Origin: Shigella phage sb1
Direction: 5' to 3' (one strand)
Sequence record: PQ666539
Length of the DNA: 64,000 bases
Below the pieces are notes generated by a model. It had not been told where the DNA came from. It did no database searches and worked only from the letters and a program-made list of their open reading frames with translations. A program made the position numbers and the translations under genes. Shown here piece by piece: positions 19,752 through 20,164 of this stretch (the stretch's first letter is position 1; the number at the start of each line of letters is the position of its first letter).

Positions 19752-20164
19752 TATTTTCCAGCCTCAAATGCTCGCATGTCTTGAATATGCTTAATAGCAA
19801 ATCCGCGTGATTTAATAGCATCAAGAGCTCCGCTACAGAAATCCAATAAAATTCCCCAATATTGTAATGAAGTATCAACTTTTAAAACATCCTTATCAGC
19901 TGATAGAACTGTCTTCATTTCTGATTTCTCATAACGGTCCATACTAAATTCATCACCATCTACTCGTCCCGAGTAGTAGTCTAATTTAGCTTTAAGAGCA
20001 ACTTTTTTCTGTGCTTCAATTCTAAGCATTTCCTTTTTAATACTTGAATGCTTATTGAGCCATTTACTATATAACATCACATTATTAGCTGCTTCATACT
20101 GTAATTTAGTCGAATCTATAAACACATCTTTCTTCAAGTCTTATTGAAGATCTTCTAATCTCAT
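19751..20164 (-). CDS. uvsY: Recombination mediator UvsY, interrupted by in-frame TAA (minus strand) at 20141-20143, codon 8
   Basis: MRLEDLQ(stop)DLKKDVFIDSTKLQYEAANN...; 137 codons as T4 UvsY. Confidence 0.85.

Follow-up and report, generated by a model that had tools for sequence, protein, structure and literature searches.

The early in-frame stop codon of uvsY in a T4-type phage sequence is very probably an error in the sequence record

Does the TAA that interrupts uvsY at its eighth codon belong to a living phage, or to the record in which its sequence was read? The window, that is the whole stretch of 64,000 nucleotides that was analysed, reads ATG AGA TTA GAA GAT CTT CAA TAA GAC TTG AAG AAA GAT GTG TTT on the minus strand from position 20164. 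Translated, the frame gives MRLEDLQ*DLKKDVF..., and beyond the TAA 128 codons are open up to the stop at 19753-19751. Direct reading and translation confirmed what the initial annotation had claimed, that codon 8 of the uvsY frame is an in-frame TAA (20143-20141, minus strand) and that the sole ORF listed at this place (19751..20137, 128 aa) begins only at a downstream TTG. The features of the locus are the following.

19751..20164, minus strand: complete frame of uvsY, 137 codons and a stop, broken at codon 8 (translation, tblastn, Pfam PF11056 and PDB alignments)
20162..20164, minus strand: conserved ATG start of uvsY, with an identical ATG and a 414-nt CDS in OE5505, Ec_YwIITB1, Ec_MI-02, sb2 and T4T
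20141..20143, minus strand: in-frame TAA, GAA>TAA (E8*), a coding-strand G>T that stands as C>A at 20143 on the plus strand; private among 499 records
20138..20140, minus strand: codon 9, GAC for GAA (E9D); the A>C, at 20138, is private and lies five bases away from the change that makes the stop
20135..20137, minus strand: TTG, Leu10 of UvsY and the first start-type codon past the TAA, opening the 128-aa ORF
19961..19963, minus strand: codon 68, GTA for GGA; this G68V is the other private G>T in uvsY and stands as C>A at 19962 on the plus strand; the relatives read cgagGAgat
20205..20230, minus strand: uvsY middle-mode promoter/oriF, with a MotA-box-like TGCTTCA at 20230-20224 and a TATAAT at 20210-20205, by inspection only

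Matches to the Pfam UvsY profile (PF11056, gathering score 22.8 bits) were obtained both with the ORF starting at TTG (E=1.3e-51) and with the repaired protein (E=6.3e-52), and covered the profile from position 2 or 3 to position 128 of 128. The 128-aa ORF retains the entire domain, profile positions 3-128 falling on residues 2-128. With the UvsY of Ec_MI-02 as the tblastn query, residues 1-137 were covered without a gap at 96.4% identity. In a phmmer comparison of T4 UvsY with PDB (E=1.7e-86), structures 4zws and 4zwq were aligned over 1-137, and the window gene, for which an alignment to the 137-aa T4 UvsY had been proposed as a check, aligns to the T4 structures too. The surroundings, established from the ORFs and by tblastn against the T4T annotation, have the T4-type order gp26-gp25-uvsY-uvsY.-1-uvsY.-2, opposite uvsW.1-uvsW, and the window gene shares with T4 uvsY (PDB 4ZWS, 4ZWQ and 4ZWT for the 137-aa protein) its position between gp25 and uvsY.-1, its ATG, its length and its stop. 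It had been pointed out that T-even UvsY proteins with a start downstream of the TAA would speak against an interruption; in all relatives examined the annotated uvsY measures 414 nt and begins at the corresponding ATG. An uninterrupted ORF of 137 codons from the conserved ATG was found in every relative and is missing in the window, where codon 8 is TAA, most probably because of a sequence error and not because the gene is a different one. Only three residues separate the window protein from the UvsY of OE5505, and the differences from T4 UvsY, the TAA at codon 8, D9 and V68, are all private to the window, two of them belonging to the G>T class that is treated below as noise.

At the site of codon 8 six of the six relatives read caaGAAGAAttg, which is caa GAA GAA ttg, as against caa TAA GAC ttg in the window. 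The origin of the TAA from GAA, as was initially supposed, is thus borne out by the six relatives, and codons 8-9 hold two substitutions within six bases, a G>T (E8*) and an A>C (E9D). Neither change was present in the 499 phage records matched by an 80-mer in a blastn search of 50,697 phage records; none of them matched at 100%, and the best, at 97.5%, differed by exactly those two mismatches. Exact-pattern scans likewise failed to find the TAA allele in IMG/VR viral contigs, GTDB genomes or JGI metagenomes, or any IMG/VR contig with GAC after any codon 8 in a uvsY context. Exact look-ups of the 128-aa ORF that starts at TTG and of the 503-aa UvsW in the contig index gave no match for either protein.

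The window as a whole is a Tequatrovirus sequence: among the 50,697 phage records its best 22-kb match, at 96.7%, was to Escherichia phage Ec_YwIITB1, and the strong matches were all to Tequatrovirus. In a census of substitutions its first 49 kb were aligned to Ec_YwIITB1, Ec_MI-02, sb2, OE5505 and T4T (94.3-96.7% identity), and a change was called private where all five relatives agree and the window differs; a check against the full phage database applies only to the stop sites of uvsY, gp23 and gp32. It was found that, of the 514 substitutions private to the window over 45,210 columns, 181 (35%) were C>A/G>T, as against only 12-45 (6-13%) when each relative in turn was taken as the focal genome over the same columns. 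The excess of G:C>T:A transversions in the window is about 150, and about 1.2% of the G:C sites (181/14,848) are changed. These changes are symmetric between the strands (93 C>A vs 88 G>T). When the 49 kb compared are divided into 25 bins of 2 kb, only a single bin is free of them, and they cluster slightly (13 pairs lie within 10 nt of each other vs 7 expected). Trinucleotide preferences were weak (0.5-1.7x), with GCA as the top context (1.68x) and no enrichment of CCG (5/370 sites, 1.11x). Nor were the changes tied to particular 5-, 7- or 9-mers: 2% of the occurrences of hit 5-mers and 11.5% of those of hit 7-mers were changed, and repeat hits were near chance (45 vs 42.9 and 14 vs 7.4). A small missense excess was seen in the T>G, T>A and C>T private classes as well; the A>C of E9D in uvsY fits the minor T>G part of it.

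When 86 annotated proteins of Ec_MI-02 were compared with the whole window by tblastn, 82 gave comparable matches, and 22 of these 82 genes were found to contain in-frame stops, 31 altogether (24 TAA, 4 TGA and 3 TAG), in place of E, G, S, Y or L. The same comparison detected no frameshifting gap in the 82 genes, and the same test applied to four relatives as a control returned 0-3 stops over 65-68 genes. Stops other than that of uvsY include the following.

11617..11619, plus strand: L274* (TTA>TAA) in gp23, the major capsid protein; private among 1352 records
2975..2977, plus strand: G366* (GGA>TGA) in gp17, the large terminase; tblastn and direct translation
3461-3463, plus strand: E528*, a second stop in gp17
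53210..53212, minus strand: E9* (GAA>TAA) in gp32, the ssDNA-binding protein; private among 651 records
48397..48402, minus strand: E124* and E125*, two adjacent stops in nrdA; tblastn
19075..19077, plus strand: E11* (GAA>TAA) in uvsW.1, about 1 kb from uvsY; tblastn

Further stops were found in gp16 (E153*), gp18 (E128*), gp22 (S25*, E115*), gp51 (E102*), gp27 (G194*, E341*), gp29 (G65*), gp48 (Y67*), gp34 (S371*, E394*, E681*, E1184*), gp35 (E209*) and gp36 (S190*), as well as in alt.-3 (S93*), the second alt copy (E178*), cd.2 (E22*), pseT.3 (E29*), alc (E73*, E135*) and rnlA (G132*, E183*). Those of gp23, gp32 and gp17 were verified by direct translation, and 80-mers across the gp23 and gp32 stops were identical to 0 of 1352 and 0 of 651 records, the best record in each case being one base off. 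T4 phages in which the capsid, terminase, sheath, scaffold, baseplate hub, ssDNA-binding protein and long tail fibre are truncated cannot form plaques. As capsid, terminase, sheath, gp32 and others are all broken here, no viable phage can carry this load. In uvsW.1 the stop at codon 11 has led to the listing of a 59-aa ORF from 19096 in place of the 76-aa gene, and the adjacent stops of nrdA, like the uvsY changes 5 nt apart, reflect the mild clustering of the noise. Essential genes are also found split in public relatives, gp23 of Ec_YwIITB1 (L002 11348-12909) and gp18 of sb2 (L005 3740-5563) each being annotated as two CDS; deposited Tequatrovirus genomes hold occasional errors of their own.

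The effects of the private G>T/C>A changes were further compared with those expected of random hits, with an equal chance for each G>T and C>A that could occur in the mapped genes. In 60 mapped genes 14 changes were synonymous, 104 missense and 20 nonsense (10/75/14.5%), close to the random expectation of 6.7/80/13.2% (chi-square p=0.22), and they were spread over codon positions 1, 2 and 3 as 52, 50 and 36. Of the remaining private changes 76% were synonymous and 78% fell on the third codon position, as for evolved variation. Since the split between synonymous, missense and nonsense changes is near to random, it follows that the G:C>T:A class in the window was never filtered by selection. Across the coding sequence 17.3 stops were expected and 20 observed. 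In uvsY itself, 138 ancestral G/C sites give an expectation of 1.68 hits, and two were observed (E8* and G68V); its 25 stop-creating sites give a probability of 0.26 for at least one stop, and 22 of the 82 genes (27%) were actually hit. The uvsY stop is unexceptional in this window, and an explanation specific to uvsY is not needed. Thus, while the gene identity and the reading of the stop in the initial annotation held, the significance that it implied for a nonsense mutation specific to uvsY was not supported, as 30 more such stops lie in 21 other genes and show no trace of selection.

Taken from the sequence, these comparisons make it very probable that the TAA comes from a faulty record rather than from the phage itself, and that a standard uvsY of 137 codons lies beneath it. 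The window would then be an ordinary Tequatrovirus segment overlaid with some 150-190 random, unselected substitutions, about 80% of them G:C>T:A, on both strands and without indels. A stop would arise from a hit on the G of any GAA, GAG or GGA codon and on the C of any TCA or TAC codon, and the change of uvsY codon 8 from GAA to TAA would be one of 31 such events. The ORF that begins at TTG would be the remnant left for the ORF caller, the real start being the ATG at 20164.

A real ochre specific to uvsY in a viable phage, in which MRLEDLQ is made, translation stops and then restarts at the TTG (or at the GTG of codon 14) to give an N-truncated UvsY with its whole domain, appears very improbable, although such a restart would have the TTG 3 nt past the TAA, and its 128-aa product would cover positions 3-128 of the 128 of the Pfam UvsY profile; uvsY is, moreover, not strictly essential in T4. 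Against it, the change belongs to the unselected noise class, and the 30 other stops, many of them in indispensable genes, are beyond such a rescue. The allele occurs in 0 of 499 relatives and is absent from the three public collections scanned, and the private, non-conservative E9D and G68V stand in a protein that is otherwise nearly identical to those of the relatives. By inspection, the only stretch before the TTG that resembles a Shine-Dalgarno sequence is UAAG, with a spacer of 2 nt. Restarts after early nonsense mutations are said to have been described for T4 rIIB by Sarabhai and Brenner in 1967 and by Napoli, Gold and Singer in 1981, and there too a possible start codon lies within a few bases of the early stop, so that a product shortened at its N terminus is conceivable in principle. 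Unlike the rIIB cases, the window stop is one of 31 and is not conserved, the Shine-Dalgarno match ahead of the TTG is poor, and nothing indicates that it exists in a living phage. Reinitiation at non-canonical starts has been reported from a eukaryotic expression system (PMC4648390), and was not counted as support for a restart here. Recoding, by which the TAA would be read as sense and uvsY translated in full, could draw on the many genes with in-frame stops and on nothing further. Programmed recoding would be expected to use one stop type at positions conserved in the relatives, whereas in the window three stop types stand in frame in place of five different residues (E, G, S, Y and L), the same codons still terminate every gene at the conserved position, and the three sites tested (uvsY, gp23 and gp32) are private to the window. 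Because the stop types are mixed and the residues varied, at positions that are not conserved, recoding is therefore excluded for all practical purposes.

A somewhat larger, but still small, probability was given to the sequence being a correct record of an actual, but dead, T4-like DNA molecule in which about 1% of the G:C pairs had been changed to T:A and which was captured without selection, as by single-molecule or single-virion sequencing; the same small chance covers jointly the causes that could be named for it, namely extreme guanine oxidation, as by reactive oxygen, a mutator condition or an unknown mutagenic (possibly antiviral) process. If this were true, uvsY and about 21 other genes would be truly inactivated in that molecule. 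The near-pure and strand-symmetric G:C>T:A spectrum, the lack of indels and the lack of selection fit such a molecule equally well, and the lack of k-mer-specific errors points to stochastic lesions rather than to a systematic base-calling error. What weighs on the other side is the extent of the change, about 1.2% of G:C sites. Known biological mutator rates lie orders of magnitude below this, and we know of no phage or host process that changes G:C sites to such a degree. Moreover, a contiguous 64-kb consensus from one damaged molecule would be an unusual data type, and the sequence holds nothing by which a damaged molecule could be told from a technical artefact.

For an error in the record, the preferred reading, the observed excess, with its spectrum, its randomness over codon positions and its lethality, would have a technical origin in DNA handling, sequencing or assembly. 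Candidate sources may be guanine oxidation, G>T-biased read errors in a consensus of very low coverage, damage from few templates fixed by amplification, or a record corrupted later on. Pairing of 8-oxoG with A leads to G>T, a documented artefact of library preparation (PMC3616734). As described by Costello et al. (2013), this artefact has a CCG>CAG context, an allelic fraction below about 20% and a bias of read orientation, read 1 showing G>T and read 2 C>A (PMC3616734). The window resembles it in the predominance of the C>A/G>T class (35% vs 6-13% in the relatives) and in that codon position and essentiality are ignored, but differs from it in that CCG is not enriched and the changes stand in the consensus. 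The window was not filed under the classic OxoG artefact, as CCG>CAG shows no enrichment (5/370, 1.11x). A k-mer-specific base-calling error caused by the modified cytosines of T-even DNA was also rejected, the hits not being k-mer-specific, and a long-read consensus error was considered unlikely in view of the lack of indels in 82 genes and of k-mer specificity. It counts against an error in the record that about 0.4% of consensus errors without any indel would be unusual for an assembly of normal coverage.

The biology of uvsY is not affected by this result, as nothing points to a truncated or recoded form of the T4-type recombination mediator. Stops, odd starts and "pseudogenes" in the window should be weighed against a G:C>T:A noise of about 1.2%, and other such cases probably have the same cause. 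The proteins of the window carry about 100 spurious missense changes, which matters for homology searches and structure prediction. If a public deposit is the source, it merits a quality flag or re-polishing.

The TGCTTCA and TATAAT motifs upstream of uvsY are the same as in the relatives, and a sigma-70 scan at the uvsY promoter showed no -35 box, as expected of a middle promoter. In the T4T record oriF(uvsY) is placed at the beginning of uvsY, and it was reported that the uvsY middle promoter doubles as the T4 origin oriF and that R-loop formation downstream of this promoter does not depend on sequence (PMC3016281). An effect of the two changes in codons 8 and 9 on oriF(uvsY) was considered and set aside: both fall barely within the stretch that follows the promoter, the promoter motifs are intact, and the R-loop is reported not to be sequence-specific (PMC3016281). 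The uvsY leader/oriF of T4T contains a 10-bp tandem duplication, ccaataacaa (L007 20255-20275; L003 1985-2005), which is lacking in the window (20175-20190) and in the other relatives.

Several other features of the window were noted alongside. Between gp18 and gp19, at 5724-6380 on the plus strand, lies a TTG-started ORF of 218 aa in a segment that did not align to T4T, OE5505 or Ec_MI-02; Ec_YwIITB1 and sb2 align across this position, with a hypothetical ORF annotated in the same gap. No Pfam match was obtained for the 218-aa ORF, and its richness in Cys and an HNH-like "DH...N" seen by eye suggest a mobile insert of the homing-endonuclease type. In the hoc region (15352-16767, minus strand) two overlapping tblastn matches to the Hoc of Ec_MI-02, at 80% and 66% identity, suggest that Hoc is longer here by an extra Ig-like repeat, like that of sb2 (1419-nt hoc). 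At 35298-35514 the window lacks genes 30.4 and 30.5 of Ec_MI-02 and carries another segment in their place, as do Ec_YwIITB1 and sb2. Finally, 27928-32040 on the minus strand holds two full-length tandem paralogues of alt (ADP-ribosyltransferase), as in several relatives, whereas T4 has only remnants of the second copy (alt.-1/alt.-2).
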